From Macrostomum lignano (lineage: Eukaryota): a stretch of DNA of 64,000 nt. How positions within the stretch are numbered: the stretch's first letter is position 1; each line of letters starts with the position of its first letter. The stretch spans positions 124,001 to 188,000 of the forward strand of contig NIVC01001300.1 of assembly GCA_002269645.1 (NCBI GenBank), in the 5' to 3' direction. Below, one piece after another: positions 12,807-52,343 of this stretch. The notes under the pieces were generated by a model. The model was not told where the DNA came from, ran no database searches, and saw only the letters and a program-made list of their open reading frames with translations. The translations under genes and the position numbers were made by a program.

Positions 12807-13598
12807 CACTAGATTGCTAGTTGATTACACTAAATCCGTTTTACCTCAGTTCCCAATGGCTGTGCTCTCTCATTGGCTACGAACGTCTGTGCAGCTGAGG
12901 GGTGGCTCGCATATGAGACTCAAGATGACAAATAGTCCACTGCAATTTCTGTGAGCTATTCTCTGTTCTCTACTGTCAGCTACCGATAGAAACAGCGCTC
13001 GAATATGGAAGTTTTCACCATTTCTGTTGACACTCAGGTAAATGAGACTTTATTTCATGTACGCCACTACTAAGATAATCAACCTAACTAATATGTATCA
13101 ATCAGTAATTTACTTGTCATTTCGAGGCCAATGCTCATATAGATGACACACATTGGATGATTACCAGTAGTATAAATTCAAGCCCAACCAACAGAACGTT
13201 CGATGGCAACGAAGCTTCTGATGTGTAAATTTGGAGGCTCAGTCCGGGGCAATATGTTAGAAAAAAAGCTGAGAGAGCGCCAAGGATTCATTGCATAAAA
13301 AGCGAAATAACTACAGCATACATGCATTCATTTTTTCATCGCCGAACGGAAGGACAGCATTTCGAGCCTTTTGTTCAGTAGAAAGTGCAAGTGTCGATTG
13401 AGTTTCCTCTCAGCGAAATGCGGAAATCACCCACGAGCTTACAAAAACGCCTGCAGGTCTCTTCCAATACACAGTTGATTCTTTGCCAGGCATTTTTCCC
13501 TTCCTTCAGTCGCAGCTGTTTAAATTCTCACGAATCTATTTTTTGCTTTGCCTCTTTCATGCTTGTACTTGCGCTTCCTCACTGACACACCCCGCGCG

Positions 13599-15673: not shown

Positions 15674-16428
15674 GCTCCGTCCGAGACCGCGAATACCTGA
15701 TTCGATAGTTTAGTATACGAGACTTAACTATGGTTTAAATTGCATTAGTATTCTCCTAAACTTAAAGTTCTCCTGTGCTCCCTGGCATGGGTCTTCAAGG
15801 TCATTAGTTGGTTTAAAGTTCATGAGCAAACGCATGTACCCTGTACGTCCGGGTATGCGCAAAGGGTGCACGTTAATTATTGAAACCATTAACACTCGCT
15901 TACACCGGTGCACGTAGCACGTTTCATGTGTCCGGAACGCATCTATTTGTCTTTGTACGTTTTTTGAAGTTGTTATTTTACCCCCTGTAATTGTGTTCAG
16001 AGCTTTATTGATACTTAGGCCGTCTACTTCAGTAATTTTTTTCTAAATTAAGCTTCTTTCGTGCGTTTTTTAGCTTTTATCGTTGTGCGAGTTCACATGT
16101 ACGTCGCTTTGAGTTGCTCTGTTCAATGTTTCATCTATTTAATATACCATTGAGCAGGCTTACAACCTGCTTAAATGCTTCAATGCAAAACAGAAAAATA
16201 GTGTGGTCCATATAAGTCACTCATTATTGATTCATTAAACTATTTTATTATAGCGGGAAGAAACCCACAGAGTAAGAAGCAGAAATTCAATCGAAACGGA
16301 GAGTCAGGTTTGCATAGAAATGGAGACTGACGAAGAAGAGTCAGAGAGTGACGGAGACTCAAATAGTGACGGAGACTCAAAGAGTGATGAAGACTTAGGG
16401 AGTTACGGAGGCTCAGAGAGTGACGGAG

Positions 16429-16787
<359 letters not shown>

Positions 16788-17159
16788 TGCCAGAGAGTCA
16801 AACAAAAGTCAGCTAAGAGGAGAGTCAGGTGGAGAAGTGGGATAGGCAGGCAGAGTCCCGACTCAGCCATGAACTAAGAATGAGGAAAAACTGATACCAA
16901 TCTGAAGACAAACCGGCCATATTCTGAGCTATGCAACGACATAGTTAGTCTGTTAGATGAGAATTTTATACCTATCAATGCTTTGCTTCTAAGTGCCAAT
17001 TATGAGAGCAGTTTTTATTTCGTGAAGATCATGAAAATTCTGGTCAGTTATGAGATTTGTTGAGCATAGATGTAGCAGGTATTGTAACATCACACATTTT
17101 TCAGTGATTACACTGTAAGTAGTTGCGTAGTTGGGCAATCCGAGATTTTAAAAATTTCC

Positions 17160-18180
17160 ATTTCCTAATTTAGTGTTCACTTCGTAATTTGGAATCCATT
17201 TCCTAATTTGGTGTTTATTTGTTAATTTGGTGTCCGTATTTCCTAATTTGGTGTTTATTTGTTAATTTGGTGTCCGTATTTCCTAATTTGGTGTTTATTT
17301 GTTAATTTGGTGTCCGTATTTCCTAATTTGGTGTTTATTTGTTAATTTAGTGTCCGTATTTCCTAATTTGGTGTTTATTTGCTAATTTGGGGTTTATTTG
17401 CTAATTTGGTGTTTATTTGCTAATTTGGTGTTTATTTGCTAATTTGGTGTTTATTTGCTAATTTGGTGTTTATTTGCTAATTTGGTGTCCCTATTTCCTA
17501 ATTTGGTGTCCTTATTTCCTAATTTGGTGTCCTTATTTCCTAATTTGGTGTCCCTATTTCCTAATTTGGTGTGACTATTTCCTAATTTGGTGTCCTTATT
17601 TCCTAATTTGGTGTGACTATTTCCTAATTTGGTGTCCTTATTTCCTAATTTGGTGTGACTATTTCCTAATTTGGTGTCCCTATTTCCTAATTTGGTGTGA
17701 CTATTTGCTAATTTGGTGTCCCTATTTCCTAATTTGGTGTGACTATTTCCTAATTTGGTGTCCCTATTTCCTAATTTGGTGTGACTATTTCCTAATTTGG
17801 TGTCCTTATTTCCTAATTTGGTGTTTATTTGCTAATTTGGTGTCCTTATTTCCTAATTTGGTCTCCTTATTTCCTAATTTGGTGTTTATTTCCTAATTTG
17901 GTGTCCCTATTTCCTAATTTGGTGTGACTATTTCCTAATTTGGTGTGACTATTTCCTAATTTGGTGTCCCTATTTCCTAATTTGGTGTGACTATTTCCTA
18001 ATTTGGTGTCCCTATTTCCTAATTTGGTGTCCTTATTTCCTAATTTGGTGTGACTATTTCCTAATTTGGTGTCCCTATTTCCTAATTTGGTGTGACTATT
18101 TCCTAATTTGGTGTCCCTATTTCCTAATTTGGTGTCCGTTTCCGAATATGGAGTCCTTTTTCTTAATTTGGTGTCAATTT
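17160..18180. repeat. 21-bp minisatellite (atttcctaatttggtgtccct)n, decaying copies to ~18600
   Basis: Directly visible; LIWCPYF 7-aa periodicity. Confidence 0.95.
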
Positions 18181-19168
18181 CCCAACTGTGAAGTCTAGAT
18201 TTGCGTGCCTAGAAAGGTGGCCTCTGTATGGCTTTGTTAACTCAATATATTTATTGTTCAATATTTTGGGGTGGGGTGAATCGATGCGCGATTGGTCGAT
18301 AACTGGTAAACAAGTTTCAAAGGCGAGAGAATGAGTCATGAATAATAATGTGGGGCAGAGAGAGCCTACACTAACTTGGTGTCAATTTTCTAATTTGGTG
18401 TCCTAACTTCCTAATTTGGTATCGATTTCCTAATTTGCTGTTTACTTTCTAATTTAGTGTCCTTATTTTTTTAATTTGGTATTCATTTCCCAATTTGGTA
18501 ATAATTACGTAATTTGGTATTCAGTTCCTAATTTGTGTTCATTTACTAATTTGGTGCCCCTTTACCTAATTAGGTCTTCATTTCAGAATTTGGTGTCCCC
18601 ATTTTCTAGTTCAAAACATTTTTCAAATGCCGACTATCATGTTTCAAATTTACATGTAGATCCATGTACTAAAAATAGCTCGTACTTACTAAATTAGAAT
18701 ATTTGGTGAACTTAAACTCCTGTCGAATTAAAACGAGCCGAAGCATCTGTCAGTTTTGTATCAGCAACAGACTGTTGTTGAACACGCACTCGCGGATGCT
18801 CTTTTGTAAGCGCTTTCGGCTTTGATGAGCAGTTTGGCTCGACGAATTTCGGCTTAGAAAAAAGATTTGAAAATCGAAATGCAACTTTCAATTGTAGAAA
18901 AATGCGACGGTACGCTCGTAGTCCTTTGTTAGCTCAGACGAGAGGTTGGCCTTTCTTTGAACTCAAGTCTGATCGTCGGGCTCTCAAAATCACGTGCTCC
19001 GCCTCCGTGAATGCGCTTTTTGAACTCAGTCAGACAAACGCTCTACCGCCGCCTGTAGGCAATTTTTCATTTATGATTTTACTAATTAGATTGCTTGCGG
19101 AACTATGTTAATTTTTAATTGTCTCTACTCAAAGCATCGACGAAATACGAGTATTACAGTCTTATGCC

Positions 19169-19480
19169 GGGGTTGTAGCCTTGAGGTTAGAGCATCGGAC
19201 TCACGACTGTAGGTCGGGGGTTCGGTTCTCGACCCCACTCGGAACAATTTGTGTCAATTGAGCAAGACACTTGACTCTGCATTGCTTCAGTTCACCCAGC
19301 TGTAAAATGGGTGCCAGCATTAGCTGGGGTAATTGAGGGTGTGTGGCGACCCTCCCAGTCCTTGGACTGAACAGCCGTACGCAGCCTTCAGATACGCCGC
19401 GCAATAGCTGCGGCTGAGCTGTCGGTTGCACATCTGGCCATTAGGGCAGGTGTAATTAAATATTATTTATCATTATTAGT
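19169..19480 (+). mobile_element. Full-length CORE-type tRNA SINE
   Basis: ggggttgtagcc…ggttagagcatcggactcacga…ggttcggttctcgacccc head, CORE-like middle, shared 3' body and ATT tail; closely matches 14131-14420. Confidence 0.87.
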
Positions 19481-21574
19481 ATGGTCTTAAATATAGTCCG
19501 AGAAATAGAAAATACCTCAGTAGTTGGATTTCTTAAAATTCTAATAATAGTACTAATATTTGCCAATTATAACTGCAGTAAATTTGCAGTAACGTCGCTA
19601 CCTGCTAGTGACGTTGTGCGGGAGCAAATTTCCTCTTTTTATGCTTGGCTTCGACATAAATTTGTCGAACTGAAAAGTCTGAGGCGACATAAATTGTCGT
19701 AAAGGCGAAATTCACTTTGATCACGCAGCCTTGACTCGAATTAGGCATCGTGTAACAGTCGTCACGCATTAAATATGCAATCATCTCATCTATCAATCAA
19801 GATTTTATTGGAATTCATAAGCCATTTCTAAAATTATTACCTTTCTTACCTTATGTGTGATCCTAAGAGACTTAACAACTACCCGCTCCCAACTGACGTG
19901 AAAATTCGACTTTAATATTTTTCTATTGACCCATCGCGTTAACTCATTATCAACCGCGGAAGGTAAAATAAGTGAATACATGATCGGAGCACTGTACAGT
20001 ACCGGGACGGTTGTATGTAGTCAGGAGTCAACGGTACCTTACCGCTGTTTGTTGGACGATGTCGCTGATGTTGCACGGTGCTCACAAACTTCCTGCGAAA
20101 AATTATATATTTTATCAGGGTCAGACACATCACGTGTGTGTGCACCTGCTATGGAATCGGCTGAAACCTTCAAGTGAAAGTATATGATTTGCAATCTTTA
20201 AGTTCAGAGAAAATATATATTATTGATTCCGTTCTATATAACTGAAGGTCAGGGTTAGCTGTTTTTTTGTTTTTATTTGAGTACTAAGAATTGCCTGGGC
20301 CAGGAGATTAATAGTGTTGGGGGGGAGGGTGAAATCTGTAGCCTTTTTACGAGACTGAAAACAACTGTTCACCCTTTTCCGTAAAGCGCGTTTACTTGCA
20401 TCCGCATCAAAGCAATGCAAATCAAGTTTTTTAAAGATAATCTAAAATGACTCTAAGCGCTGTATCAAGGTCGTGATGACCAAAAATCATCAATTAGTGT
20501 TTTAACCAATTCCAATTAAAGAACAATTGAAGAACATCGACTCTTATGTTGAGGTGATGTAGGCTTTAAAAATGCGTTTTTTTGCAAAAAAAGTTTTTTT
20601 CAGCATTTTTGAAGAATTCTGATCATAACATAGACAAGTGGCCTCCTTTGCTGACAGTTCACGGCATATTATTGCAACAAAAATGCGAAAGTGAGTTTAT
20701 ATGCCAAGACTGATTTCCTTTTGGCTGTCAATCCCTTGAAAAAAATTACTAAGTAGTTAACGAGAGTGATTCTACACGATTACATGTGTAAAAAACATTT
20801 TATTTAACCTGGAAACTGTAATTTTTTGTTTTTCTTAGTCAAAGTCACACGATTGCGAGCACGAAAATTTCCAATTTACAGCGTAGCCTTTATCCTTCTG
20901 TCTAAATCTTGTTTATAGGAAAATGCCTACCCAAGACACTAAGTGCAGCGCTTTGCGGATAAATGATGACAAACGAAACTGGACGTTGGGTATGAATGGA
21001 ATATACGCAAATTTAAATCTCTTAGCTGATTTAGCTCATCTGTTTGATTTCCCAGTGGGCCCAGTATTCTCCTCTGTTTTTTTGGGACACTATTGCAGTT
21101 TTACACCTTGATTAGTAGAACTGATATCCTTTGATCTGCGTTCTAAAGGGTTTCTAGTTGACGACAACTTATTAAAAAGAATAATACGCTCCTAATGTTT
21201 TTTATGTCTTATGTTTGTACATGTAAATGCTTACAAGCGAAAGAAGTATAAAGAATTAATGAATAAACTGTTTGGAAGCACTCTAGTATCACATTTTACC
21301 TTAAAAACTCGTTCATCCTATTAAAAGAGCAAACCAGTTTATTAAATTTGATGGATTTATAAAAATGATTTTTTTCAGGATATGCTGTAACTTAAATAGC
21401 CTTGAGATCCTTGATTAATTACTCAAGCGTAGGCGATCAGTGATTAACTGGAGTGTTATTCGATTCAGTTGATTATAAATCAAAAATTTTTTTTTCAATT
21501 TTAGTAAAAGAACGTTTATTCCTTTTTCAGTGCAACTTCTATACATTTTTTAGTTATTCTGTTGTTCACAAGTT

Positions 21575-22245
21575 CAGTCATCTTGACTTAGTTGACTTAG
21601 CTTCAGGGCTGTCCTGGAGGGACGCAACGTGAAGGCGTGGGCGCCCATTCCGCTAATCCCTGAACGGCCGACGCGTCGCTATGGACGAAGAGTTGGCGCC
21701 GCCCAGGGAGGTCCCCCAGTGTCGCCAGCAGCTATGATGCTCTCTGAAAGGGCGAGTTCAGCCCTGCGGGTGGCCCGGAGGTAGCGCATGAGCTGATTAA
21801 AATTGTCGGGTTCGACGCTTCAGTAATTGATGTGTGTGGCTCGAGTCTGGCTCGCATGAAGGCGGGACAGATTCTGACGAAATGTTCAGCGGTTTCGTCA
21901 CCTGAGTTTCAGAAACTACAGTTGGCGCTGGTGGTATTGCCCTGCAGGTACTGGTGCCTGGAGAAGCAGCCGTGACCCGAGAGGGTCATGGTAGCAGCCC
22001 GGATGTCTCTTCGCGAGAGGCGCAGGAGGAGCTTCCGGAGCTGGTGAGAGGGCTGAGGGACAGCGCCTCTGGATTGCCTGCCGGTAGTGCAGTTCGCCCA
22101 AGCTGAGCGGTGCTGGGTCCTGATCCACGCCTTGATGCGCGAGTCGATGACAGCCGGGAATCGGGACAATGGGTTCAGGCTCGAGAGAGGAGCCGAAGGC
22201 GCCAACTTTTACAAGGGCGTCAGCTAACTCATTCCCACTTAAGGG
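21575..22245 (-). mobile_element. 5'-truncated, decayed non-LTR retrotransposon 3' end (LOA/R1/I-group-like)
   Basis: Minus strand: RNase H tail GNELADALVKVGA…EPEP, frameshift, then LLRLSRRDIRAATMTLSGHGCF…CSF*NSGDETAEHFVRICPAF (CCHC knuckle, second Cys codon mutated to TGA). Short tandem 3' tail (ctaagtcaa)2. Confidence 0.8.
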
Positions 22246-23044
22246 TAATTTTGTTGGTGGAGCCCAACATTTTGAGGAGTCCATCAAAAAATTGTCCATC
22301 TTTTCGTAGAAGTTTTATTTCGGAATCACTATAGTGTCCAGCTATGTGGGTCGATTCTAGCAAATGATTTAACAAGTTCTTGATCTTATTGAAAATTTTC
22401 TAATTTTATTGACTTCGAATATCAAATAACATAATTATTTGCTGTTGATAGTATATTACCAATAATCTGTATTTCATAGCATTATGACAAAAGGAAAGTT
22501 AGCTCAAAATCCAAGTTTTTTCTCTTGTGATTAAAATACAGATTAGAATTTTCAAACGATAGAAATCTGCTGCTTCTAAAGAAATAACTTTTTATTTTAG
22601 TTTCAGCTGGTGTCGCAGAGCTTTGGAGCCAAAAATACACTACATTTCGGTAGTGCAATTTGTATGAAGTAGAGCATATTACAGTAGCTCGCTAGAAGGT
22701 TTTCAAATATCTATTTAGCATTTTAAATTAATCCTCAATAGGTTTTAAGGCGCGCTATTTAGAAAGCTATTAATTGACATTAAACAGTGTACGGTCAGTG
22801 ACTTAATATTAAAACATTTTCAATTGTCAGAGATTATTAACAATATAAGAAGTTCACTTTTAAGAAGTGACATTAATGATTATCAACTTCCTGACATCGC
22901 AATAATCTGGCGCCAATATTGAATGTAAAACACGCTCTTTCAAGTAGATCCGGTCTCCAGTAGGTACAATTTTACTACGCTTCGTTTGTTGAAACTATTT
23001 TTACAGCATAAAACTTACTTTGATTAAATAGTCCAGATGAAGCG

Positions 23045-29067: not shown

Positions 29068-29326
<259 letters not shown>

Positions 29327-29444
29327 ACTACGTAGCACGCAGAAACTGCAGGGTTTTCAGATGTTTTGACGCAAAAAACGCAAATTATACTACTATCTGA
29401 AAAATGAAGTAAGTAGTATACAAAAACGCTATCCTAAGCGTGAT
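29327..29444 (+). repeat. Left terminal inverted repeat (~118 bp), beginning ACTACGTAGCACGCAGAAACTGCAGGG
   Basis: Reverse complement of 38699-38815. The outer ~94 bp differ only by one A-run indel; the inner ~24 bp carry several mismatches. Confidence 0.95.
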
Positions 29445-29977
29445 GTGGCAATATGTAGTCGTAATAATCCATGTGCTCATATTAATTCCATGTACAATAA
29501 TCCCTATCTATCTCAAATTGTACATTAATTCCATGTACATTAATCCCTAAATATCTCAAATTGTACATTAATTCCATGTACATTAATCCATATCTCAAAT
29601 TGTCCATCCCCAATTCTATATGTACAGTGTCATCCCCAGCGCGCGCACCAAAATTACATGTACAATACTACATGTACGCAGAGGCGAGAATTACTAATCT
29701 CATCTACTACCAAATGAGTCAACTAACAGTGTAGCGTACATCATGTATAAGTATTTACAATGAAGATATATTTACATTTAATCAGTAGCATATTACAGGA
29801 ATCGAGACATGTACACCATCACCAGCAAATAGAATATACAGAAAATTTTACATTGTTTTTTCAATAATTTTCTCTTCATAAATGATTTTAAACAGGTTTG
29901 ACATGTAAAATATGTACAACAATAAATAGATTTTACTCAGTCAAATTTAACACGATATCTATTAAGCAAGGGCCACA

Positions 29978-32900
29978 TTATTTATAACCATAAGGCCTGC
30001 TGCAGGCCCCGTACACGCGCTTCGTCAGGACGCGCTGAAACGTCTTGTCCATACTAACAGTGTGTATGGTACAAGACGCCTTGTCGCGCCTAAACTGAAG
30101 CTGCGGCAGCTGCAGGGAGCCGCCGTGTAGTAGGGCACTGCGCAATTCGTCGCTGCGTTCCCGAATCTCCGGAGTCAGGCGGATGCCCTTGCATTTCAGG
30201 ACCTGACTCCGGACACCGGCCGCATCCTCGACAATGTAAGTGTAGAGCTTGGGCCCTCCACTTACAAAGTCGGTCATCCGGCTGCCTGCGGGCACCTCGT
30301 CGGTCCACATTCCGAGGCTCGTGCCATGGGGCGGCTCCCATTGGCCCTCGGAATGCCGGTAAACGACCCTGGGTGTGGGGAGAGAGATAATTAGTTCCAC
30401 ATGCCAACTATTCAATTCTAAAAGAATTTATCAATGCAATACTTACGAGTCAGTGTCGCAGTAAATGGCCCGTTCGCCGAGCCCCTCCAAAGCCTCGTAC
30501 AGGCGCAGCCGGGCCTGCGTGGTCGTAAAGACTCCGATTGGCACATTGGAGTACCTGAATGGCCGCTGATTAAAGTAACGGTGCCGGTACTCTAGCAGCA
30601 TAAACTCGCTGCCAATCGGTTCGCAGGCCTTGACTTTGAGGTTGGGGTCGGTCAGCCGGGCGAGCCAGTCCTCGTAGCTGGATACTATTTCGGTCGATGT
30701 CAGGTCGTCACGCTGACAAAATTTGCCCCAGAGCCTGTGTGTAGTGAAAAGAAGTGCTACTGTTAGTAGAAGAAGAAATCGTTTTAAAAACAGAATTTAT
30801 AATTACTTACGAATTCAAAAAGATTTTCGCTACAAAGCGAAGTCCTGGGTTGGGCTCGACCTTGTCCAGCGTGACGCCCTCCTTTGCAAAGAAATCGGCA
30901 ATGTAGGCGGCCTTGTCTTCATCCGACATGCCGGGGGAGCCGCTCGACTCAGCCTTCAGCTTGAGGAAGGTGCTAACATAGTCACTGAACAGGCCGGTCC
31001 GCTTCTCTGTCCAGTAGGCTAGCGCGTGCACCACCTGCAGTCGGTAGCCCAACTGGAAGGCCTTCCTCAGCTCCGGCGTTGCCCAGGTACCAGTCAGTGC
31101 CCGCTGCTCGTCTGAGTGGTCACAATCGTCGCCGCACTGCTGCTCCATACAGGTGCGGCAAAGCCCAAAAAAGAGCTTCTTTTGCACTCTGTAGGGCAGC
31201 AGCGGAATGTGCAAATCTGACGGCGGCAACACAGTCACTTTGGCAATACCAAAGTAACTAGCCAGCGCGTCAGAATCTAGCACTTGCGGCGTAGGATGTT
31301 GCACCGGGTGGCCAATCGGGTACGGGTCCTTCGACTGCACCGTCGGGTACAGAGAGACCTGCAAGTTGAAATAAAACATTATTTTCATAAACTGTATTTT
31401 TGCAAAACATTCTACTATATCAGTAGTATCACTACTCACCACATCCCGATATTTGAGAGTCTCAGTCTCGCTGGCCACAGCATGCGGGATAAAACATTCT
31501 ACGCGGCCGCCGTAGAGAGCATCTTCCATCTTGAGTGGAGCGCGCAGATGTGCAGTTGCGGCAATGAAATCGGCCTGCGACGCCAATACAGTGTCGTATT
31601 CGTGCTCCCAAATGACTCGAACACTGTAATTGTGCCGCTCCAACTCGCGAGTGAACCACTCAGTCTCGTGGCGGATATGGCTCAGAGGCTGCCGTTTGAG
31701 TGGGTGGACAGCATCCTGATCAGGCATGCACTGCTCGCAGCCATGGTAGAAACAGCCATGAAACTGCAAGACAGTGTTGCTCGCCTCATCGAAGCCGTCC
31801 ACCTTGCGGCCGAGAATGACAGCCTCGCCGCCAGTAGAGTCGCAGGTTCGCAGCCGCCCGCCAAATTCGGTGGCATTCAAATAGGCCAGCCACTTGCGCG
31901 CCTTGAATGACTGCTGGTCGGCCTGCCGGGCAATCACGCCGACCGAGTTGGGCTCCATAAACCGGGTGGTGAAAACGGCCATTGCCAAACTGGCAATCGT
32001 ATTGGCCTGAACAAACGGTTCCAGGCCGTCACAAATTTCACCAATTATTGTCCTGTACTTGATGCAGCCCTCGCGAAGCAGGACTGTGTCGCTCAAACAA
32101 TAATCGAGATACTCCCGATTAAAGTTGAACAACTCGCCCTGTCGCGAGGCTAGCCAAGCACAGATTGAGTCATAGTCCTTGTTTGCTTTGCCGCCATAAT
32201 ATTCAATAGCCGGGTAGGGGCCCACGTAGTTCCAATTAGCCGGCTTGTTGAACTCGTGGGGAAACGTCCCCTTGGCCAGCTTTGTGTCAGCGAGCCCCAG
32301 CGCTTTTGGGAATTGCGCAAGCGGGATTGGTATAAAGTTTAGAGAATCTTTGAATACCAATTTATCCACCGTCATGCTCATTAGCCGGCTGCCCTGGAAC
32401 AGAACTTGGGGCCGCTTCTTGGCCAGGCCGTTGAGCAGAGCGCCAAGCAGTAGAAACGAATCGTAGCCTGATGCATTGTGCGCGACAACAATGGCGCCGC
32501 CGCGGAATGTGGTGCTCAGCCAGGTGAAAAAAGCATTCAGCGAGGCCGGGCCCACAGCCACAAAATCGGCCATTTGGCAGGCGCAGTCTGAGTGGCTGAC
32601 GCAATTGGAGAATTCCTCCCCCAGATCGCGGCCAGTCAGACAGTTGGCGGCGCTATGCAGGCCATTGCAGAGGCGGCAAGTCTCGCGCGGAAAAGCCCGG
32701 CCGGAGCAGGTCTCGCAGCACGTGACGGCAGTCACCAGATGCACGTGATGCTGCTTCTCATCATCCGTGTATGTTTCCGTATCGTAGAACACGTACGGCA
32801 TAGTCGAAGCTTTCACTTTGGGAGCCTTGACGAAGCACAAATGCGAGCCGGCCTCGTCGTACTGTTTACACAGTGGGCACTTGACATGCCCGCACTTGTG

Positions 32901-35305
32901 ATCCGGCTCCTTTTGACCGGCTTTCAGGTCTTCGCAATACCCGCAATTGGGGCAGACACGGGTTGAGCTGCAGCGCGACCGGCCAGCCCGGTTCTTGCGA
33001 AGGTGGTTGTCGAAGCACTGCTGATTGTAGCACTTGAGGCCACAATCAGCGCAGCGCTTATAGTCACACCGCAGGCTCTTGCAATTGGAGCCAGGCGCTT
33101 TGCATTGAGGGCAGGTGTTGGCGCACTTGTGCTCTCCAGAGTTGCAATCATACGGCTGCTGGCAGCGGTCACAATAGCGGCGGGCTCCGAAAAATGGCGG
33201 CACCTTGCACACCGCGTTAAAGTGTTCGCCAATTAGGTGCAGATTCAGCACTTCGCGGCCGGGTAGGGCGTACACGCACGTATTGCCCTCCTCGGCACTG
33301 TACACCCGGACGCCGAAATCTCGGCCGGGCGACTGAGCGTTCATGGCGGCGAGCAGTTGGGGGAGCACGTCAACCCCGAAAGGCCCGGCCTGTGTGATGG
33401 TTGATAAAGACTACAACATTTGTATATTAATAAAAATGCAAATTAAAATGCGCAAGAACATTTTTTACTCACCGAATACAATTTGGCGGTAATTTGTAAT
33501 TCTCCAGTAAGCTTCTTCTGCATTGGGGAGTCGGCCTTGATTGTTTGCCACGTAGTTCTCGTGATGACTTTGGCCTGCAGGTCGGCAAAGGCCTTGGCGA
33601 CAAGCAGCGCTCGAATTAGACAGCGCTTGTCGCTGTTGGCGATGATGACATAATTATAGCCCATAGCATGCCTGGCCTGAATGTGGCGCTCCGCCGCATC
33701 TAAGCTGCCGCAGCCGCCCCGCGGGACCCAGGCCTTGAGCAAAAACAATTTAAAGTTGTTGCCCAAGACGCTGGAGTCCGACTGCAGCACCTTGTTGATA
33801 TGCTTGAAGACAAGCTCTGCAGTGAAGCGGCTGCGGCGGACGGGCGGGACATTGATGGCGAGCATCATATTGTCCGCCGTCAGCTTAGATGCGACGAAGT
33901 CATCTGCATTCAGGTCGGCGCAGAGGGTTGCTATTATTTTCTCAAATGTTGAGCGAATATCGCTCAAATTTGTGAATACTATCTCGTATTCGACCCCTTT
34001 TGCCTTAAATTTTGGCAGGGCCTTTGCCCCGCCAAGACGCGCAATGAAACCTGAAAAATGGAGGGTTTTGAAATTAGAATTGCGAGAGGCTGCAGGTGAA
34101 TGACTCATGAAATCAACTCCTTACCATCGCCTTCGACAGTGTCGGGCTGGGGCGGGGGTTGAAATTGAGCCAAATCTGCAATAAAAATGCGCATGGCGAC
34201 TAAAATTCTGACCGCTTGGAATTTTACAACTGTCAAAAACTTTTGATGATTGCCTGCAGCAGCAGCAATTTTATCGCCCCACCCCAAGCAACAAAAATCG
34301 GCGAGTTGTAAAAACCCCAACTCGGCACGTTCCGACACGTAGCAACAAAAGAAATGTGGGGTTGATTGACCCCCGCTTCGAATTTTAGGCTGTCAAAAAT
34401 GTTTGATTGATGACCCTGATAACACTGATCCTGCCGCAGCAGACATTGTAAAATTTAAGAAAACCCCTATCAGCACGTGCCTCCATTGTACCTCCTTGAC
34501 ACCTAGCAACAATACCGCGCGGCCGCTTTTGGATTTTTAAAGCTGTCTGATTAATAACCCTCACTGTAGCAGCCAAGTTTTATTGCTGCCAAAACCCCTA
34601 CTGTCAATTGCAGCGGTGATTACATAATCATGCCCAAAAATCGGGGGTTGATTTTATCACTGCCGCCTGCCCGCCCCCCGCTAAGTCACGCGCTCGCCAC
34701 AGGATTGCTGTTTTTGCTTCTCTAGTCACATAACCCCAGAAATTTTATGACTATCCTCTACAGGCATTATCCGGCTATACTGCTGTTGCGGATATTCTCT
34801 AAAACTCTGTTATTTCAATAGGCCTGAATTTGAGAAATCCAACTTCAACATCTATGTCAAGAGGAAATTCAGAAATTTTAAGCCAAAATGAATGTTAAAG
34901 ATGGAAAGATGTGGCTTCAAAGAAAGCCCATATTTCAACAAGCGTTAAGTTTGCAAATCACACAAATGCTAAAGCTGAAAAGCAATTACAGAAATTTTAA
35001 GCCAAAATGAATGTTAAAGATGGAAAGCTGTGGTTTCAAAGAAAGCCCATATTTCAACAAGCGTGAAGTTTGCAAATCACACACAAATGCTAAAGCAATT
35101 ATACAGCCCTATTTTTCTGATTTTAGATTTTGCAAATGCTAAAAGCATAGTTTAACGCGCGCAGAGACTCACCTAGCTGTCGTCCCCTCTTTGCTGCCGG
35201 AGGCTGATGCTGCTGCTGTTGTTGCTGCGGTTGCTGCCTGGATGGGCCGGCCTGCCCCCACAAGGCTGAAATAGCCGCTTCCGCAGCAGAGCGCTTCGAT
35301 GCCAT
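29978..35305 (-). CDS. pPolB: Protein-primed family B DNA polymerase (Maverick/Polinton type), ~1,312 aa, 7 exons
   Basis: Exons 35305-35173, 34175-34125, 34050-33473, 33389 (or 33410)-31440, 31358-30811, 30734-30447, 30368-29978 total 3,939 nt, in frame with no stops. Motifs: DKRCLIRAL, Cys-rich zinc region, ExoI FYDTET, ExoII HNASGYD, ExoIII YCLSD, YGGRVE, Pol A DVVSLYP, Pol B KIFLNSLWGKF, Pol C YCDTDS, GPKLY, KCKG. Exons 1-2 are the least certain. Confidence 0.92.
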
Positions 35306-35491
35306 TTCGATGGGGAAGGTAGATGGTTGTTGATGCTGCTGGTGATGTTAATGATGCTGCTGCAGCTGATGTTAGAGGCAGAGGGCTGGTGGCTGTCGTT
35401 GCTTCTGCTGTTGCTGCTAGCTGTGATGCTGCTGTTGTGGCTTCTGCTGCTGGCTGCTTTTGCTGATGCGGCTGCAGCAGCTCTCACCCGC

Positions 35492-35499
35492 TTTATATA
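35492..35499 (-). promoter_or_regulatory. Candidate TATA box (TATATAAA) for pPolB
   Basis: ggTATATAAAgcgg on the minus strand, ~190 nt upstream of the ATG at 35305, following a GC-rich stretch. Confidence 0.6.
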
Positions 35500-35569
35500 C
35501 CCCGCGAGAGGGAGGATGGGGTAGGGGCACGAGAGGTGTGCGTGGTTTTCTTTCCCGGGTCTATATTTT

Positions 35570-36037
35570 CTAGATTAGTGTACGATTGTACACTCGGTTC
35601 CGCATTTGGTATAGAAAAGTTGGGGTCGAAAATACCCCATAAATTCTTTTCTCATGCGGTTTTTTATTGGATCTGAGCGGAGCCACCCAACCAGCATTCT
35701 CGCAGGAGTGGAAACTGCTGCTCCGCGCGCCAGAGTACAGTCTCTTAATTAGGAAGACAGCTTCCTCTTGCAGCATGTCTTTTCGACTTAAATCTGATAG
35801 AAAACGGTGTTTATTCAAAATACAATACCTTGGCGGACCAATAATAGCTAAATACAGATGAAAATATGAAAGATAACTTCTGTGGTTTTTAAGGCCCGCC
35901 GGTCTCTGCGAGAAAATGGTTGTTAAAAATCGCTGTATCAATTTAATAACCTTGGTGAAATGGGGCTTGTGTGCAAAGCATCCGATTGACAGAGGCTTGG
36001 TGAAGAGTAATAGTCGATGAAAAGCTCTTGCCATCAT
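35570..36037 (-). CDS. Hypothetical 155-aa ORF inside the element, no recognisable family
   Basis: ATG-initiated, non-repetitive ORF in AT-rich DNA, co-oriented with and just upstream of pPolB; no motif recognised. Confidence 0.25.
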   Translation of the reverse strand: MMARAFHRLLLFTKPLSIGCFAHKPHFTKVIKLIQRFLTTIFSQRPAGLKNHRSYLSYFHLYLAIIGPPRYCILNKHRFLSDLSRKDMLQEEAVFLIKRLYSGARSSSFHSCENAGWVAPLRSNKKPHEKRIYGVFSTPTFLYQMRNRVYNRTLI

Positions 36038-38698
36038 CTAAAATATCCACAAAGAGTAATGAAGTGACGGAGATCCTCTGTCACAAGCCAAAACAGAGAG
36101 ACAGAGTTTTCTACTTCTGTTTACGTAATGTTTAGGGATGGACCTGGGGTTATAGGGACAGAGAGTCAGTTATGGCATTTACGCGGTAGTAAAGAATTGC
36201 CTTGGTGAGGCTGGGGTAGGTGTTGTGCTGTTCTCTCCATATTGACGAACATTAATAGTCCTGGGTTGAATTTTGATATGGCTAGAATGTATGTAGTGGA
36301 GAATCTTTGAATTGAAGGGTGATTCAACATGCAAAGTATGCAACAAAACTGATTCAGTGCATCTAAAAGAGGCTGTTGGGAGCTTCGGAACTGAGAATAA
36401 CGTTTAAAATAGCATCAATGGCATGATTTAGTAATCGAAATCAATCGAACACTGAAAACTTTAAGTTTAATAGCAGACTGTGTTTTTAGCCCCAATTTTT
36501 ACAGTGTCTATACAATATTTCCCCAGCTTCTTGGGCAATATACATGCCTATTTGAATGATTAAACAGCATTTGTGATGATTTATTAGCTAACATTATTAT
36601 CTCTATTGATAAAATGACAGATTTCGATCCATAAAGTAAGCATTTTAACGTTAAAAATCGAAAAAATGAGGAAAACTCGTGGTTTTCGTGAAAAAGTTTG
36701 CATTTCTAATAAATTTTTACCATTAATCAACCATTTCTTAGGCTGGGCTGGCTTGTGGACTTCCGTGTGGGATCATTCTTGCTTCGAAGCCGTCTCAAGT
36801 AAAGTTGAAACGGCATTTGGGTAAATTAACTGTTGAAGTTTCCAGTGATGAAATTACTGATTTTGATCAACAAAGTCTAACTTTTAACGTTAAAATTAAA
36901 GAAACTGTAGAAAACTCGCCTTTTATGAAATGTGCTTTTTACGAGCTACTAATTTAGCTTTTAATAAACTTGGACGGAATTCCAACTTGGAGAGGTCAGT
37001 GGGTGATTCATTCCTGCTTCGAGCGATCGAACTTTCATAGAGTCTGAAAGCTTGAAGTGAGAGGGTAGTGGAAGCGATAGAATTGGCATAGCAGCACGTT
37101 TTTGGGCGGGTGGACTTCACTACTTCTAGTATACCGCATTGGTCATAGTGCCAAAGTATTTCTGTGACAAAACACATCTATAGAATTCAGTCTCGGAATT
37201 GAATGCAGAGGAGACACTGATTCATAGGCTGTGTACATTGACAGATGCAGGGGTATTGGGTCGATGCAGTTGGAGGTTGACTCGGATTTGCTCAGATTCG
37301 TGGGGTTGATGTGTGCATTGAAAGTTAGTTTCTTGCTAACTGGGGCGGCATGGATGACGTAATTGGAGAAGAGGGGTTTTGCTGAATGAGGTTTAATATA
37401 GGGTCCGTGCTGTGAAAAGATCTGTTTGAACACTGAAATGGAGAGAGGGGTTGGAATTCCTTGGCATTTAGAAGGGTGCAGAGAGAAACAGGGACAAGTG
37501 GTTCAATTCGATTTGCTATATAGGGGTCTGCTGAGGGGTGGATGTTTTCGAACAAGTCTTGGGGTTGAATTTTGAATATGGCCGGAGATAAAGGGTGATT
37601 CAACATGCAACATAATTAATTCCATAGTGCACACCAGCGTCAGTGGCATATTTTGCGGATTACAGCGCGACAAGGGTCTTGTATCATCCGCACTGTGATA
37701 CGAAGCATATAAAACATTGCTTTCACAGTCTTGAATTTAGAGGCCGACTAAATAAATCGTATACGTATCATATATATACGTCTTTTGAAAACTTTTTTGA
37801 CTCGGGGAGAGGGGTTGGGAATGACGTAATTGTCTCGGAGTGGCGACGAGGGCTGAATTCTAGAGGGATGAAGTATAAAAGGAGTGGATATAACAGTGTG
37901 GACAGCAATTTTTGGCTAACTCATGCACCTCCTCCGCCAATTTTGGGGATGGGCGGCGGTTTCTGCGTACACTGTTTGCTTTTTGAGGGTCAGCGGAATA
38001 TGAAGAGTTAATTCTTGGATGTGCGGCCGCTTTGCAAATTTTGGGTATAATTTGGGTGGGTGGGCGCTTCTGCATGCTCTCTGTTTCAACTATTGAAAAT
38101 AGTTGAAAATAAACATGATATCAGCTTTTTCAATATAAAAATGTAAAATTATGAATGTAATCTTTTTCAGTAAGAATCTCGACTTGTAAACTCTACTAAT
38201 GGTAGTATGGCGTAATCAGTTACATTTGGTTTTGAGTAATTCACATATAAATATGCATATATGACGTGTTCTGTAAAACTTGGATGTTAGTTGACTCATT
38301 TGGTAGTAGGTGAGATTGTACAGTTGGCGCGCACACACCGACCCACCTCTGCGCATATACTGTGCTGTACACGTAACAATTAGTGTTTCGAGTTGTACAT
38401 ATAATCTTGTGGGGTTGACGATTCAAATACGCAGAGCGGGGGCCGTCGTGTAGATTGGGGATTAATGTACATAATGTACTGTACATATAAAAATTGTCAT
38501 AGAAGTAGATTAATGCGCAAGTGTACATATAGAAGGACTGTACAAGTTGACAATACACATGTAGAATTGGGATAGACATGGAAGTAGACAATGTACATAT
38601 ACAATTTGAGATAGATAGGGATTAATGCAGTACATGGGATTAATGTACACATATGAGTACATGGATTAATGTACATATACGAGTACATATTAAAGTAT

Positions 38699-38815
38699 AT
38701 CACGCTTAGGGTATCGTTTTCATATACTACTTACTTCATTTTCAGATAGTAGTATAATTTGCGTTTTTTGCGTCAAAACATCTGAAAACCCTGCAGTTTC
38801 TGCGTGCTACGTAGT
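38699..38815 (-). repeat. Right terminal inverted repeat, ending CTGCGTGCTACGTAGT
   Basis: Matches the left TIR as described. Confidence 0.95.
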
Positions 38816-38886
<71 letters not shown>

Positions 38887-47520: not shown

Positions 47521-47617
47521 GAGAGTCACCCTTAGCTGTAAAGGGCGCACATACCTTCAACGCTTTAGACCAGCTGTCTAAATAATCTACTTAACCTATT
47601 TCATATAATTATTCTGC

Positions 47618-49523
47618 ATGTCGGGCTCAAAGAATCCGCCAATTAGTGACGATGACGTCAGCAGCGGCGATGACGTCAGCAGTGACGAGGAGATGTCGCA
47701 TTCAAATAGCGAACCCAATCGAAGCCAATGCCGGGAGCAGCCGGCCCCGGGCCCTGTGCTCTTTCTGCACCCGGATCTGGGCATAGGCGGCGCCGAACGA
47801 GCAATGGTGGACATGGCTCTGGCATTGAAAGATCGCGGCTATCCAGTCTCCTTCATCACGGCGCATCACGATAAGTCGCACTGCTTTGAGGAGACGCGCA
47901 ACGGCCAGCTGGACGTGTTTGTCAGCGCATCCTGGCTGCCGAGGTCTCTCATGGGCAGGTGCATCGCTCTGTGTGCCTGTCTGCGTATGCTGTGGGCAGC
48001 TCTGTACGTGCTGATCGGCTGGAGGGGAGCCAATTTTCCTCGGGCGGTTATTGTGGATCAGGTTCGGAATTTTTTCACTTACAAGTGTATTTTGTCTCTT
48101 ATGGCTACTTTATTTCTGTAGATAGATAGAGATAGAGATCCCCCTGTCTGTCCTTACCCTCTCTTCCACCCCTTGACCCTCTTTTCCCTCTTCCCCCTCT
48201 TCCGTCCCGTCCCTTTCCCTCTACCCTCTCTCCCCCTCTTCCCCCTCTACCCTCTCGCCCCCTCTGCCCTCTCTTTCCCCTCTACCCTCTCTTCCCACTT
48301 TTCCCCCTCTACCCTCTCTCCCCTCTTCCCCTCTTCCCCTCTTCCCCCTCTTTCCTCTCTACTGTCTCTCTGCCCCTTCGATTTTCTCTTCCCCTCTTCC
48401 CCATTTCCACCCTCTACTATCTATCCCGCTCTTCCCCTCCCAAACTACCCTCTTTTCCGCATGTTCCCTGTCTTTTTAATACTTTTCGCATCTTCTCCCT
48501 TTGCCTCCTATAGATCCAGTCTTTTCCCTCTTTTCCTTCCCCATAGTACCCTCTCCGCGATTCACCATTGGTCCACAGGTCTCAGCCCCGGTGCCTCTGC
48601 TACGCTGGTTCTCCCGGCGAACCCTGTTCTACTGCCACTACCCGGACCTGCTGCTCTCTACTCAACGCTCCGGTCGTCTGAAACGTATGTATCGTCGCCC
48701 GCTGGACGCCCTGGAAGCCTGGACCACCGGCCGGGCTGATGAACTGATGGTGAACAGCCGGTTTACAGCCAGCGTGGTCAGATCCACCTTCCCGGCCCTG
48801 GCCAGCCGCAAACTGCACATCGTCTACCCGGTACCCAACTTCGCCTCGCTGGACATCGCCGCTGCCGATCCGTCTGGTGACGAAGAGCTTCAAGCCTGCC
48901 TGCCGGAGCCGTCCGCTCGCCGGAGCCTGTTCCTATCATTAAACCGTTACGAACGTAAAAAGAATGTCGGATTGGCTTTGAAAGCCTTTGCACGATTGTT
49001 GAACGATCAAGGACGAGGCTCTGCAGCTTCAGCTCATCTGGTCATTGCTGGTGGCTACGATTCGAGACTGTTGGAGAATGTGGAACACTTTGAAGAGTTG
49101 CGTCAGCTGGCTGAGGAGCTGCAGGTGTCGAATCGGGTCACCTTTCTGCGCAGTTGCAGCTCACCTGCTAAAGCGGCCCTACTAAAGATCGCCACTGCTC
49201 TGATCTATACTCCATCTGGTGAGCATTTTGGCATTGTGCCAGTTGAAGCTCAGTATCTCGGCTGCCCCGTGGTGGCAGTGAATAATGGCGGACCATTGGA
49301 GACTGTACTACATGGAGCTACTGGCTTCTTGTGCGAGCCTGGCGAGGCTGAGTTTTCGGCTGCAATGGGTCGGCTGGTTAATGAGGAGGGCCTGCGCACC
49401 GCTATGGGTCGAGCTGGTAGGCGTCACGTGACCGACAAGTTCTCCAATGCCGCCTTTGCCGATGCTGTGGTCAGAGTGCTGCAGAGGGACAGTGAGGCTT
49501 CTGCTGCTGCTTCTAGTGACTGA
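47618..49523 (+). CDS. ALG2: Alpha-1,3/1,6-mannosyltransferase ALG2 (GT4), 462 aa, 2 exons
   Basis: Exon 1 47618-48061 (FLHPDLGIGGAER…VDQ; donor CAG|gttcgg). Exon 2 48579-49523 (cacag|VSAPVPLL, FYCHYPDLLL, SLNRYERKKN, EHFGIVPVEA). Intron is TC-rich low complexity. Confidence 0.96.
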
Positions 49524-49679
49524 AACTTCACATCAAGTCAGGACTTTTGTGTCTGCTTGAAGATTTTTATTGCGTCAATATTTGATTTAAATTAGTCATT
49601 AGCTACTGAAATCATGGTTAAAGAAATTGCTTCTGTTCTAAACTTTTGCTGACTTTTTAAATCCGAAATTTATGACATT

Positions 49680-50200
49680 TGAGTCCTTAAAACCCACAAT
49701 CTAAACACTATTTAGGAGTCCTTGAACTCCCCAATCTAAACATTATTTAGGAGTCCTTGAACTCCCCAATCTAAACACTATTTAGGAGTCCTTGAACTCC
49801 CCAGTCTAAACATTATTTAGGAGTCCTTAAACTCTCCAATCTAAACACTATTTAAGAGTCCTTAAGCTCTTCGATCTAAAAACTTATAAGAGTCCTTAGA
49901 CTCCCAATCTAAATACTTATAAGAGTCCTTAGACTCCCAATCCAAACACTTATAAGAGTCCTTAGACTCCCAGTCTAAACACTTATAAGAGTCCTTAGAC
50001 TCCCAATCTAAACACTTATAAGAGTCCTTAGACTCCCAGTCCAAACACTTATAAGAGTCCTTAGACTCCCAATCTAAACACTTATAAGAGTCCTTAGACT
50101 CCCAGTCTAAACACTTATAAGAGTCCTTAGACTCCCAATCTAAATACTTATAAGAGCCCTTAGACTCCCAATCTAAACACTTATAAGAGTCCTTGAACTC
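49680..50200. repeat. 33-bp minisatellite (gagtccttagactcccaatctaaacacttataa)n
   Basis: Directly visible; 11-aa periodic spurious ORF. Confidence 0.95.
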
Positions 50201-51299
50201 TCTCCAATGTGTTAATTGCAACCCGATAACTAAATTTATTAGTTTTAAACTTTTGCATCACCATAACGCTTATACATGTAGACGGTAACATCATTGCTAA
50301 CCACATATTGTAACAGATATTATCCATTTAATGTATGGCATGCATAATTCAACAAAAGATGTTTACAAGAATACAATATTTACCTAGTAAAATCCCGGAT
50401 GCTACGGCTATTTATGCTTTGCGCGACACTTAATGATGGATAAACATAATTATATTTTTTTTCTGCTCTCTCACCCTGTCTCCGTTTCTCAATCTATTTT
50501 TAGAATCCTACTCTTTTCAATCTTAGTACCGTATTATTCTCCAGCTCAAAGCTTATGTTCTTCAAGTTCAGTGTAGACTCAACTGTATTAATTGTGTTTG
50601 AAGCTTTTTAATTGCCAGCGGAGAAAATCTAATATAAAATCGATACATATCGCCTCTAGAAGCAGAGATCCCAATTTTGTTTTGCTTGAAGCCAACACCA
50701 GCCTATCAAATTAGTAGCAAGCATATTTATCTTAACTGCGAGTGTTACATGCGTTTATTGCTTTTTTAAAAATAATCTGCGATCAAAATCTATTGTGACA
50801 GAAAAATTGAGTTTTTTTTTCAAATATAAATGTATTTACTGACACTAGGGCTGCAAGCCTGCTTGGTAATGGGTTGAATTCATCTGAGTCTACATGCATT
50901 TTAAAAATCTTTTTTATTAGTCTCACGAATGTTTTATTAGTAAACAATTTAGATTAGTTTGTCAAGTTTTTCTGAAAGTTTTTTCTTGAAATATATAAGA
51001 TTTGCTTTCATATACTACTTACGCTTAGTTGGTCAAGTAGTGTTATAATAATCTTAGATATAATTTTTAAATTAGCGGTTAAACTATGTAAGCATCTCAG
51101 CAATTCCCCTTTAAGCCTTTAGCATCTCAGCAATTCCCCTTCAAGCGTTTGACATCTCCAAAATTCCCCCTTAAGCGTTTTAGCATCTCATCAATTCCCC
51201 GTAAGCCAAAAATTAGATTTTAAATGTTTTAGGCCTAATTTCAGATGTACTTTATATTTGTAAGAAAGCTCCCTAAAAAGGACAAAACCGTTAATATTG

Positions 51300-52343
51300 A
51301 TGGACTGCTCCCTCTGCTATTGGTCAGGCATTGTGGCGGCGGCCTTAGGAGCCGCCAGCCTTCTGTTCAGCCTGTGCTACTGGCTAGTTCTCAACCGAAT
51401 TCTCCCTAGCAACAAGTTGAATCCTCGCGGAGGTCATTTTGTGGTGTCGGGTGGCTCTAGCGGAATTGGTTTTGCTCTGTGCCGGCGTCTGCGCCGTCTG
51501 GGAGCTCATCTGACTATTGTTGCTAGGGACGCCAAGAAGTTAGCGGTTGCCAAGGCCGAATTGCTAGCCGATTCGCCTGAACTGAGCGAATCCGAGGCTG
51601 CTATCTATCTGTTATCAATTGATTTAACTGGCGATCCGGATAAGCTTCAAGCTGATCTTGACAGTCACTTAGCAACTGTGACGCAACCGTTGCTAGGCGT
51701 TGTCAACTGCGCCGGCTACGCTTTGCCGTTAGAATTTGAACAGCTGAGTCTGGCTCAGCACGAGAGTCAGATGGCTACTAATTATACTGCTGCAATGCGG
51801 CTGACTCACTGCCTGCTGCCCAGGCTGTTGGCATCAGGCCAGCCCGCTAGAATTGCCTTCCTGTCCAGTGTGGCTGGTCAGCTGGGTGTCTACGGCTACA
51901 CCGGCTACGGGGCTGCCAAGTTCGCCCTCCGCGGCTTGGCCGAAGCCCTTCAGATGGAGCTGGCAGCCAGCCAAGTGAGACTGGTGCTGGCGTTCCCACC
52001 GGACACGGACACGCCCGGCTATCAGACTGAGAACGCCAGCAAGCCGGCTATCACTGCTAGCATCAGTGCCAATATCTCGCTGTATTCTGCCGATCAGATT
52101 GCTGAGCAGTTGGTTAAAGATTTGATTGATGGACGGTTTTTGAGTTGCTTCGGCTCGGATGGTTGGCTGGTTGGCTGTCTGACTGCAGGGTTCAGTCCGC
52201 CTACTGGCTGGTTGGATACCATGGCCCAGTGCGGTTTGGGTGGCCTGTTCCGTGTCATCGGTTTGGTCTATCTCAAGTCGCTGTACCAGCTGGTGCGAGA
52301 TGGCAAACGGGCTGCCGCTGCTACTGATAAAAAGTCTGATTGA
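51300..52343 (+). CDS. KDSR: 3-ketodihydrosphingosine reductase (SDR family), single exon, 347 aa
   Basis: N-terminal TM segment, SGGSSGIG, YTGYGAAKFALRGLAEALQME (YxxxK) and FPPDTDTPG, all characteristic of KDSR/TSC10. Confidence 0.92.
   Translation: MDCSLCYWSGIVAAALGAASLLFSLCYWLVLNRILPSNKLNPRGGHFVVSGGSSGIGFALCRRLRRLGAHLTIVARDAKKLAVAKAELLADSPELSESEAAIYLLSIDLTGDPDKLQADLDSHLATVTQPLLGVVNCAGYALPLEFEQLSLAQHESQMATNYTAAMRLTHCLLPRLLASGQPARIAFLSSVAGQLGVYGYTGYGAAKFALRGLAEALQMELAASQVRLVLAFPPDTDTPGYQTENASKPAITASISANISLYSADQIAEQLVKDLIDGRFLSCFGSDGWLVGCLTAGFSPPTGWLDTMAQCGLGGLFRVIGLVYLKSLYQLVRDGKRAAAATDKKSD

Follow-up and report, generated by a model that had tools for sequence, protein, structure and literature searches.

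Mavericks or Polintons of animals, including the 'adintoviruses' (PMC8502044, PMC8097293), are single elements of 13-25 kb that combine a protein-primed DNA polymerase from family B (pPolB) of the PF03175 type with long N-terminal extension, an rve integrase, a double-jelly-roll capsid protein, a penton protein, an adenain-like protease and an ATPase between terminal inverted repeats (TIRs), and that are flanked by 6-bp target site duplications (TSDs); the definition used here sets TIRs of 100-1,500 bp and TSDs of 5-8 bp (10.1101/2023.08.22.554363). Segmented pPolB systems are described in the Bidnaviridae (Bombyx mori bidensovirus VD1/VD2; PMC4061559, PMC4938981): two single-stranded DNA segments of similar size have their own inverted terminal repeats (ITRs), share a short common terminus of 53 nt and are served by one polinton-type pPolB, with a parvovirus-derived capsid and an SF3 helicase on the polymerase segment; polymerase and TIRs were given to bidnaviruses by the polintovirus lineage (PMC4061559). 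Drosophila Vesanto virus is a bidna-like, multi-segment pPolB element of up to twelve segments with a common terminal repeat sequence, and is not presented as an integrating Maverick in the accessible text (PMC8363768). The present analysis concerns a stretch of 64,000 nucleotides of the Macrostomum lignano genome (assembly GCA_002269645.1, contig NIVC01001300.1, i.e. G000:C1300:124001-188000; hereafter the window). Its TIR-bounded element at positions 29327-38815 (9,489 bp) is very probably, as judged from sequence comparisons, the polymerase segment (A) of a bipartite Maverick/polintovirus, whose integrase and virion genes reside on a second segment (B) and which is accompanied by fold-back palindromic parasites (P).

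Taken together, A and B resemble the animal Mavericks in the features listed above, protease and ATPase being putative, but these are distributed over two separately integrating elements of 9.5 and 10.2-10.5 kb: integrase, double-jelly-roll capsid and penton are present on A and B together and absent from the window element alone, and the two segments were not found on a single molecule in the partly scored genome searches. The separation of the polymerase from all other genes departs from the two gene modules of vertebrate Mavericks (PMC8097293); in addition, six spliceosomal introns in the pPolB gene set it apart from the animal Mavericks compared, and A and B end with 5'-AC in contrast to 5'-AG in the canonical Maverick of the same genome. 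The closest organisational parallel is the common terminal sequence of the bidnaviruses (PMC4938981): two ITR-bounded segments, a common terminus (here 31 nt) and one pPolB, proposed to serve both segments, recur in A/B. Capsid and integrase differ: instead of a parvovirus-type capsid and an SF3 helicase, a double-jelly-roll capsid together with putative ATPase and protease is encoded by the segment opposite the polymerase, and both segments appear to be integrated via an rve integrase. No report of a bipartite Maverick, or of Mavericks of this host, was found in the accessible literature (including PMC6431247, PMC11131425 and 10.64898/2026.10.13.758929), with Repbase, supplements and most subscription journals outside the scope.

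TIRs and TSD of the window element agree with the Maverick definition, and its length falls below the 13-25 kb range (A1 TIR pairs: 3.4-9.6 kb). A preceding interpretation made from the letters of the window (the sequence-only reading) had given extent and length of the element correctly, and had offered two explanations: an integrase-independent, linear-plasmid-like replicon, or one segment of a bipartite system that receives integrase and capsid in trans. The TIRs, which it regarded as near-identical, are so in their outer part (100% complementary over 77 bp), but similarity decreases to 84% across the outer ~200-220 bp, with a further 33-bp match inward; the 6-bp TSD, masked by an (ACT)n tract, and the introns of the polymerase gene had been overlooked. 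An origin from CACTA/EnSpm elements, suggested by the left junction, which reads CACTA, was dismissed: the first C is flanking sequence, and the TSDs measure 6 bp.

The pPolB gene is located on the minus strand and consists of seven exons and six GT-AG introns; once spliced, it encodes 1,312 amino acids with zero internal stops (1,319 amino acids if an alternative acceptor 21 nt upstream is used). Length and presence of the exonuclease (Exo) and polymerase (Pol) motifs were as anticipated by the sequence-only reading; the gene does not form a single reading frame, and three of the motifs (motif A, KxxxNS and YCDTDS) are interrupted by introns. The assignment to the protein-primed family B polymerases is based on PF03175 matches of exons 4 and 5 (E 3e-14 and 1.5e-11) and on the Exo and Pol motifs. 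Intron 6 (78 nt) is skipped in the contigs of all three sequencing runs guessed to be RNA (two studies) and retained in a fourth run, which has no recorded kind and is probably DNA. Since no run holding the element is recorded as RNA, the evidence for splicing comes from runs whose RNA nature is a guess; introns 1-5 are not among the joints listed. Among six copies, 780 of 1,102 substitutions in exons 3-7 are at third codon positions, with nine non-triplet indels in 22.5 kb. Database proteins of 87-96% identity carry the label Macrostomum lignano.

The remaining part of the element is a non-coding arm. In the seven copies covering 35500-38200, substitutions were distributed without codon periodicity (219/268/221 by position modulo 3), and 143 non-triplet compared with 17 triplet indels were counted in 17 kb; most other copies contain stops or altered frames within the three longest open reading frames (ORFs), and neither Rfam nor Pfam matched the arm. 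Genes for integrase, ATPase, protease or capsid were not detected in the window element by tblastn with the ten segment-B proteins (best E 0.22), in line with the sequence-only reading, which had seen no ORF of integrase, A32 ATPase, protease or capsid type. A spliced gene hidden in the right arm, such as the integrase gene considered possible at 35500-38700, is excluded by the indel and codon tests, which very small exons could escape.

The 764-Mb assembly was searched for related elements, each search scoring part of its candidates (numbers in brackets). With the A1 TIR, 16 TIR pairs of 3.4-9.6 kb were obtained (best 40 of 216), and a terminus pattern search added 46 exact or near-exact ends. 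The loci opened fall into three contents: A with the polymerase, B with integrase and virion genes, and P, gene-less palindromes. The polymerase genes of class A are 89-98% identical (best 40 of 187); with a profile of 25 pPolB relatives, pPolB was detected in A loci and in none of the B or P loci. The element consequently belongs to a multi-copy family of ~9.5 kb, and elements with the same ends that carry integrase and capsid exist: the second of the two explanations offered beforehand is supported by this partner segment and, as outlined below, by a second family split alike.

Segment B was found via the TIR search (loci L073, L075, L079, L080 and L087). It has a length of ~10.2 kb with 575-bp TIRs and occupies dozens of loci; copies of 91-100% identity were situated on 29 contigs (best 30 of 75), and the 16 B1 TIR pairs (best 40 of 83) comprised eleven of 9.8-10.5 kb, four of 7.6-8.7 kb and one fold-back of 14.4 kb. 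Its gene order is two unknown ORFs, a TBP-like ORF, two further ORFs, rve integrase, penton, major capsid, protease and ATPase. The two ORFs between the TBP-like ORF and the integrase are presumably PW- and PZ-like, ORFs of this type being present in animal Mavericks as well. The integrase matched PF00665 above cut-off in both families (B1 and B2). The structural model of the B2 major capsid protein (pLDDT 79.7) matches PBCV-1 VP54, Sputnik and mavirus (E 4e-17), the B1 protein being 87% identical; by sequence, the capsid protein had no match in Pfam, and a PDB search with the capsid profile gave zero matches. The B2 penton model (pLDDT 67) matches the mavirus penton (E 1e-8), with the B1 protein 45% identical. 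For the protease, the nearest Atlas clusters (score 0.97) hold Peptidase_C5 in 28-38% of their members, which is a lead, and its homologues are situated after the capsid gene in metagenomic contigs; a direct match in Pfam or PHROGs was not obtained, and 0/6 proteins matched PHROGs. The ATPase contains Walker A/B motifs and is 31-37% identical to ATPases of Maverick-like contigs, with weak P-loop Pfam matches only. Within B1, the proportion of non-synonymous differences (pN) is at most one fifth of that of synonymous differences (pS).

The same division of genes was found in a second family, read from one A2 locus (C307), a second A2 copy and one B2 locus (C807). The respective polymerase group is 58-67% identical to that of the window element (best 88 of 185), and the capsid group mostly 84-88% (best 106 of 523). 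A2 (C307) is 9,474 bp long with TIRs of ~880 bp, has polymerase introns 3-6 at the A1 positions and lacks the B genes; B2 (C807) is 10,541 bp long, shows the B1 gene order plus a Fic-domain ORF and lacks the polymerase. The ends of A2 and B2 agree at 31 of 32 positions, and TSDs of 6 bp flank the two segments. The A2-type TIR pairs (n=16, best 40 of 270) span 5.7-10.8 kb; of the B2 TIR pairs (n=15, best 40 of 146), 13 measure 10.45-10.75 kb and two 13.9 kb, the latter on contigs absent from the polymerase list. Between the families, pS reaches 0.65-0.81 in both segments, i.e. near saturation, at a pN of 0.07-0.25 for integrase, capsid, protease, ATPase, TBP-like ORF and polymerase (penton: 0.41). 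The Fic-domain and TBP-like ORFs of B2 (L143:903-1706 and L143:3242-3775) match PF02661 (E 7e-14) and PF00352 (E 1e-4), respectively; a stronger TBP match (E 1e-21) is present in another Maverick-like locus (L101:575-1141). A small additional ORF of A2 (L141:3918-4385), absent from A1, remained blank in Pfam and PHROGs; by eye, it resembles PC4-type ssDNA-binding proteins. Seven A2-type TIR pairs have no listed polymerase match (G000:C1573, C1510, C2358, C1651, C303, C93 and C1944) and possibly represent a second palindrome family.

Two-ended copies are flanked by 6-bp TSDs in 6/6 A1 (including the microsatellite-embedded window copy; unambiguous at all five other loci), 9/11 B1, 14/15 palindromes, 2/2 A2 and 1/1 B2, loci duplicated with identical flanks (L040, L044, L045, L046, L074, L087) being excluded from these counts. 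The occurrence of these TSDs on A, B and P argues that all three are evidently inserted by a Maverick-type integrase, which is encoded by B alone. Only 2 of the 33 two-ended loci are located in microsatellites, so that microsatellite targeting was discarded. The other previous explanation, that A is a self-sufficient, integrase-independent replicon resembling a linear plasmid and captured by host repair, would agree with the missing integrase in cis and with the window copy, whose TSD cannot be distinguished from the microsatellite repeat. Capture of this kind implies no TSD of fixed length, but 6-bp TSDs were present at 8/8 two-ended A1 and A2 loci, with precise ends at the five other A1 and both A2 loci, and a cognate integrase is available on B; because the independent insertions bear 6-bp TSDs, this explanation is unsupported and exceedingly unlikely. 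Twenty-nine of the 33 two-ended loci, including 14 of 15 palindromes, combine differing flanks with a 6-bp TSD; three have inverted-duplicate flanks (one of them a B/P chimera), and one B1 copy is without TSD. The three loci and the several duplicated ones are what would be expected if split and palindromes were assembly artefacts of broken or fold-back long reads; the 29 others, the palindrome arms of just 71-78% identity to A and the correct assembly of longer one-piece Mavericks in the same genome reduce this to a practically negligible probability.

Apart from their terminal 31 bp, the TIRs of A and B have nothing in common. In a comparison of the termini, to which each insertion contributed one end (A: 13, B: 13, P: 19), positions 1-8 and 28-31 hardly vary, whereas the difference at positions 9-27 amounts to 0.42 among A copies, 0.38 among B copies and 0.41 between the two classes (permutation 255/1,000); the adjacent positions 32-51 are class-specific, with a difference of 0.85 between A and B (permutation 0/1,000). 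Two exact 31-mers were found in A and B alike, and the two 31-mers of one copy are identical in 27 of 32 cases. Because the variation of ~40% among copies is without A/B structure, the segments evidently exchange their ends. The hypervariability is concentrated in two short blocks (window 29335-29353, in all copies), which are modular across A, B and P and have fixed neighbouring bases; candidate reasons are origin specificity or the escape from palindromic parasites or small RNAs. A2 (L141:1691-1713) and B1 (L073:104-126) have 23 identical bases that extend across families from the 31-mer end into the sub-terminal sequence, which suggests cross-family exchange or an ancestral end.

A joined A+B copy was not found among the TIR pairs scored (16 B1, 15 B2, 16 A2-type and 16 A1/palindrome), most B1 copies having been read without their leftmost 4.3 kb, and seven A2-type pairs and the two 13.9-kb B2 pairs without their interiors. 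Cognate capsid loci (62 on 60 contigs) and polymerase loci (86 on 77 contigs) share three contigs, at distances of 48, 166 and 468 kb; split pieces of one locus were counted once and capsid matches below 67% identity excluded. The largest B TIR pairs have ~14 kb, and an A1 TIR pair of 18 kb contains an insertion without B genes. These results bear on the possibility that both segments arose by deletion from a one-piece parent which persists in unassembled sequence or solely as exogenous virus, the derivation from full-length Mavericks with the same TIRs having been foreseen as a counter-explanation. The sum of A and B is indeed the normal gene set of a 20-kb Maverick, among the distant capsid relatives (28-41%), at least six of the 15 metagenomic contigs with a length of 8 kb or more are one-piece, with pPolB, and the genome searches were not exhaustive. 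A simple internal deletion of one parent would not, however, yield TIRs that are wholly different past base 31, and two families with saturated synonymous sites would each have had to be divided at one and the same point; together with the unseen parental copy, this renders the deletion scenario very unlikely.

According to another alternative, A and B are unrelated non-autonomous elements, each moved by canonical one-piece Mavericks, and their likeness is incidental. Many such Mavericks are indeed present in the genome: PF21738 matches at 73 sites, all in other, unrelated elements and none in segment B, further capsid genes show 31-34% identity, and a canonical one-piece element of 16,380 bp, which served as control, possesses AGTAG ends, TSD, capsid genes, its own pPolB and an integrase-like ORF. 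The canonical elements end with AGTAG or GTAGT, though, and the A/B termini were unmatched in the other Maverick loci (L091-L120) except for one known B copy; A1/B1 and A2/B2 each have their own terminus, the variants of which are exchanged; and under mobilisation by canonical Mavericks there would be no need for purifying selection to act on gene sets that complement each other exactly. This account is hence judged improbable. An A2 copy (L145; G000:C4072, ~14540-22995) was identified as TSD-bounded insertion into a third Maverick, where it separates a capsid gene (32% identical) from the protease gene. In two adjacent Maverick-like virion gene clusters (L101-L103, G000:C273; 29 kb) and in a 19.2-kb TIR element at C1101, a match to the pPolB profile was absent; other Maverick families may be split too, or may possess a divergent polymerase.

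The elements of class P are gene-less, end-to-end palindromes of 9,377-9,562 bp that are 99.6-99.7% self-complementary (three copies measured); a fourth copy has arms of 4.2 kb (99.9%). Their arms are 71-78% similar to ~1.1 kb of the A arm, and because the identity is only of this order, the palindromes form a family of their own. They occur at L032, L033, L036, L053 and ~15 other loci (e.g. G000:C301:37567-47128) with a length of ~9.4-9.9 kb, A1 ends and 6-bp TSDs; one of them (C1485) carries an inserted A1 copy. Like non-autonomous TIR elements and the defective fold-back genomes known from protein-primed replicons, the palindromes retain no more than the ends that are required in cis; unlike such defectives, they are of near segment length rather than shrinking. 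Chimeric copies are in accord with the replication in one pool proposed below: in L072 and L074, B ends enclose the interior of a P element, and in L075, a 370-bp stretch of A lies within a B copy. At L076-L078, termini of A and B type are combined with fragments of the polymerase in rearranged mosaics, of which L077 includes a nested ORF that resembles a non-LTR retrotransposon.

The mechanism proposed for the bipartite element builds on the standard Polinton model, which reportedly goes back to Kapitonov and Jurka in 2006. The polymerase of A would provide terminal-protein-primed synthesis and start replication at the common terminus of excised linear molecules of A, B and the palindromes, which would thus replicate in one pool; panhandle pairing would keep both ends of a copy identical, template switching would shuffle the termini among the classes, and the integrase of B would reinsert the products of all three. 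With less support, the capsid of B may package ~9.5-10.5 kb, one segment per particle: if so, it would be understandable that A keeps a non-coding arm of 3 kb and that the gene-less palindromes stay at ~9.5 kb, and separate packaging of ~10 kb would most simply explain why the three classes, including the one without genes, resemble each other in length. The palindromes would be fold-back defective molecules that parasitise the replication and the integration/packaging functions. The more far-reaching version, namely a segmented integrating dsDNA virus with double-jelly-roll capsid, A and B being packaged separately in ~10-kb particles, with a rapidly shuffled 31-bp origin, unit-length palindromic parasites and a split old enough for two families to have reached synonymous saturation, is put forward tentatively, its chances being slightly below even; purifying selection on the capsid genes bears on it indirectly.

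A and B are each present in many independently integrated copies and are subject to purifying selection; they have 31-bp ends in common, which they exchange, and the division is found in two families. Several points weigh against the bipartite interpretation. The complementation of A and B is deduced from the genomic data and not from virions, free linear DNA or protein interaction. The assignments of ATPase and protease are derived from motifs, context and the Atlas lead instead of curated family matches; PF04665 (Pox_A32) had zero matches genome-wide, the B ATPase included. Many B copies contain frameshifts or stops, via decay or assembly error, and shorter derivatives of 3.4-8.7 kb occur in all classes, so that sizes are not strictly fixed. 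As the searches scored part of the candidates, a rare joined copy may exist. Finally, relatives of the B genes reach 69-70% for the integrase (six proteins) and 76-81% for the capsid (three proteins), on short contigs, in contrast to ~40% at most for non-host pPolB apart from two short matches of 92% and 66%; because of this discrepancy, A and B may have been brought together instead of arising by the division of one recent parent. Viral contigs (capsid and integrase alignments) and metagenomes (integrase alignment) contained no confirmed relative.

Table 1. Features of the window element (positions within the window); domain layout and names of exon 4 partly after PMC11161782.
Feature	Position	Strand	Remarks
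Left TSD copy, TACTAC, within (ACT)n tract	29321..29326	+	Length ambiguous here: 3, 6 or 9 bp fit
Common terminal 31 bp, same as in segment B and palindromes	29327..29357	+	Positions 9-27 hypervariable among copies
Left TIR	29327..29525	+	Perfect up to 29403, 84% to ~29525; extra 33-bp match 29696-29728
Exon 7: remainder of motif C, GPKxY, KCKG, stop	29978..30368	-	
Intron 6, 78 nt	30369..30446	-	Joint skips 78, CT..AC on + strand
Exon 6: LWGKF to YCDTD	30447..30734	-	
Exon 5: VSLYP to KIFLN	30811..31358	-	PF03175
Exon 4: end of vOTU-like region, Cys-rich region, Exo I-III, VSR-like insert, motif A start	31440..33389	-	Alternative acceptor 33410
Exon 3: putative terminal-protein domain, start of vOTU-like domain	33473..34050	-	pPolB-profile match E 8e-16
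Exon 2, predicted	34125..34175	-	Splice signals only
Tandem duplication in intron 1	34859..35096	+	2 x ~118 bp, 92%
Exon 1, predicted start ATG, Q-rich	35173..35305	-	86-100% amino acid identity in 5 other copies
TATA-like box TATATAAA, upstream of exon 1	35492..35499	-	Putative promoter; sequence inspection
Non-coding arm	35500..38596	.	~36580-37740 71-78% identical to palindrome arms
Right TIR	38597..38815	-	Perfect 38739-38815; terminal 31 bp = 38785-38815
Right TSD copy, 6 bp	38816..38821	+	

The surroundings of the element in the window include many tandem repeats and a gap of N (55581-56129). Host exons at 47609-52340 are, by eye, taken by us to resemble an ALG2-type glycosyltransferase and a short-chain dehydrogenase; exons with a receptor-like look are present at ~13500-15700.

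Mavericks have been defined as one-piece elements in which polymerase and integrase occur together; in M. lignano, this unit appears to be split into two cooperating segments. At least one survey accepts candidates with five or more Polinton proteins (10.1101/2023.08.22.554363), a validation that a polymerase-only segment fails. If the stable two-segment form is true, short 'incomplete' Mavericks may be complementing halves and not decay products, and the elements would offer a genomic model for the origin, within the polintovirus lineage, of segments that have a terminal sequence in common. As the host is a laboratory flatworm, the question of Maverick virions becomes accessible to observation, the prediction being separately packaged molecules of ~9.5 and 10-10.5 kb, the gene-less palindromes included.

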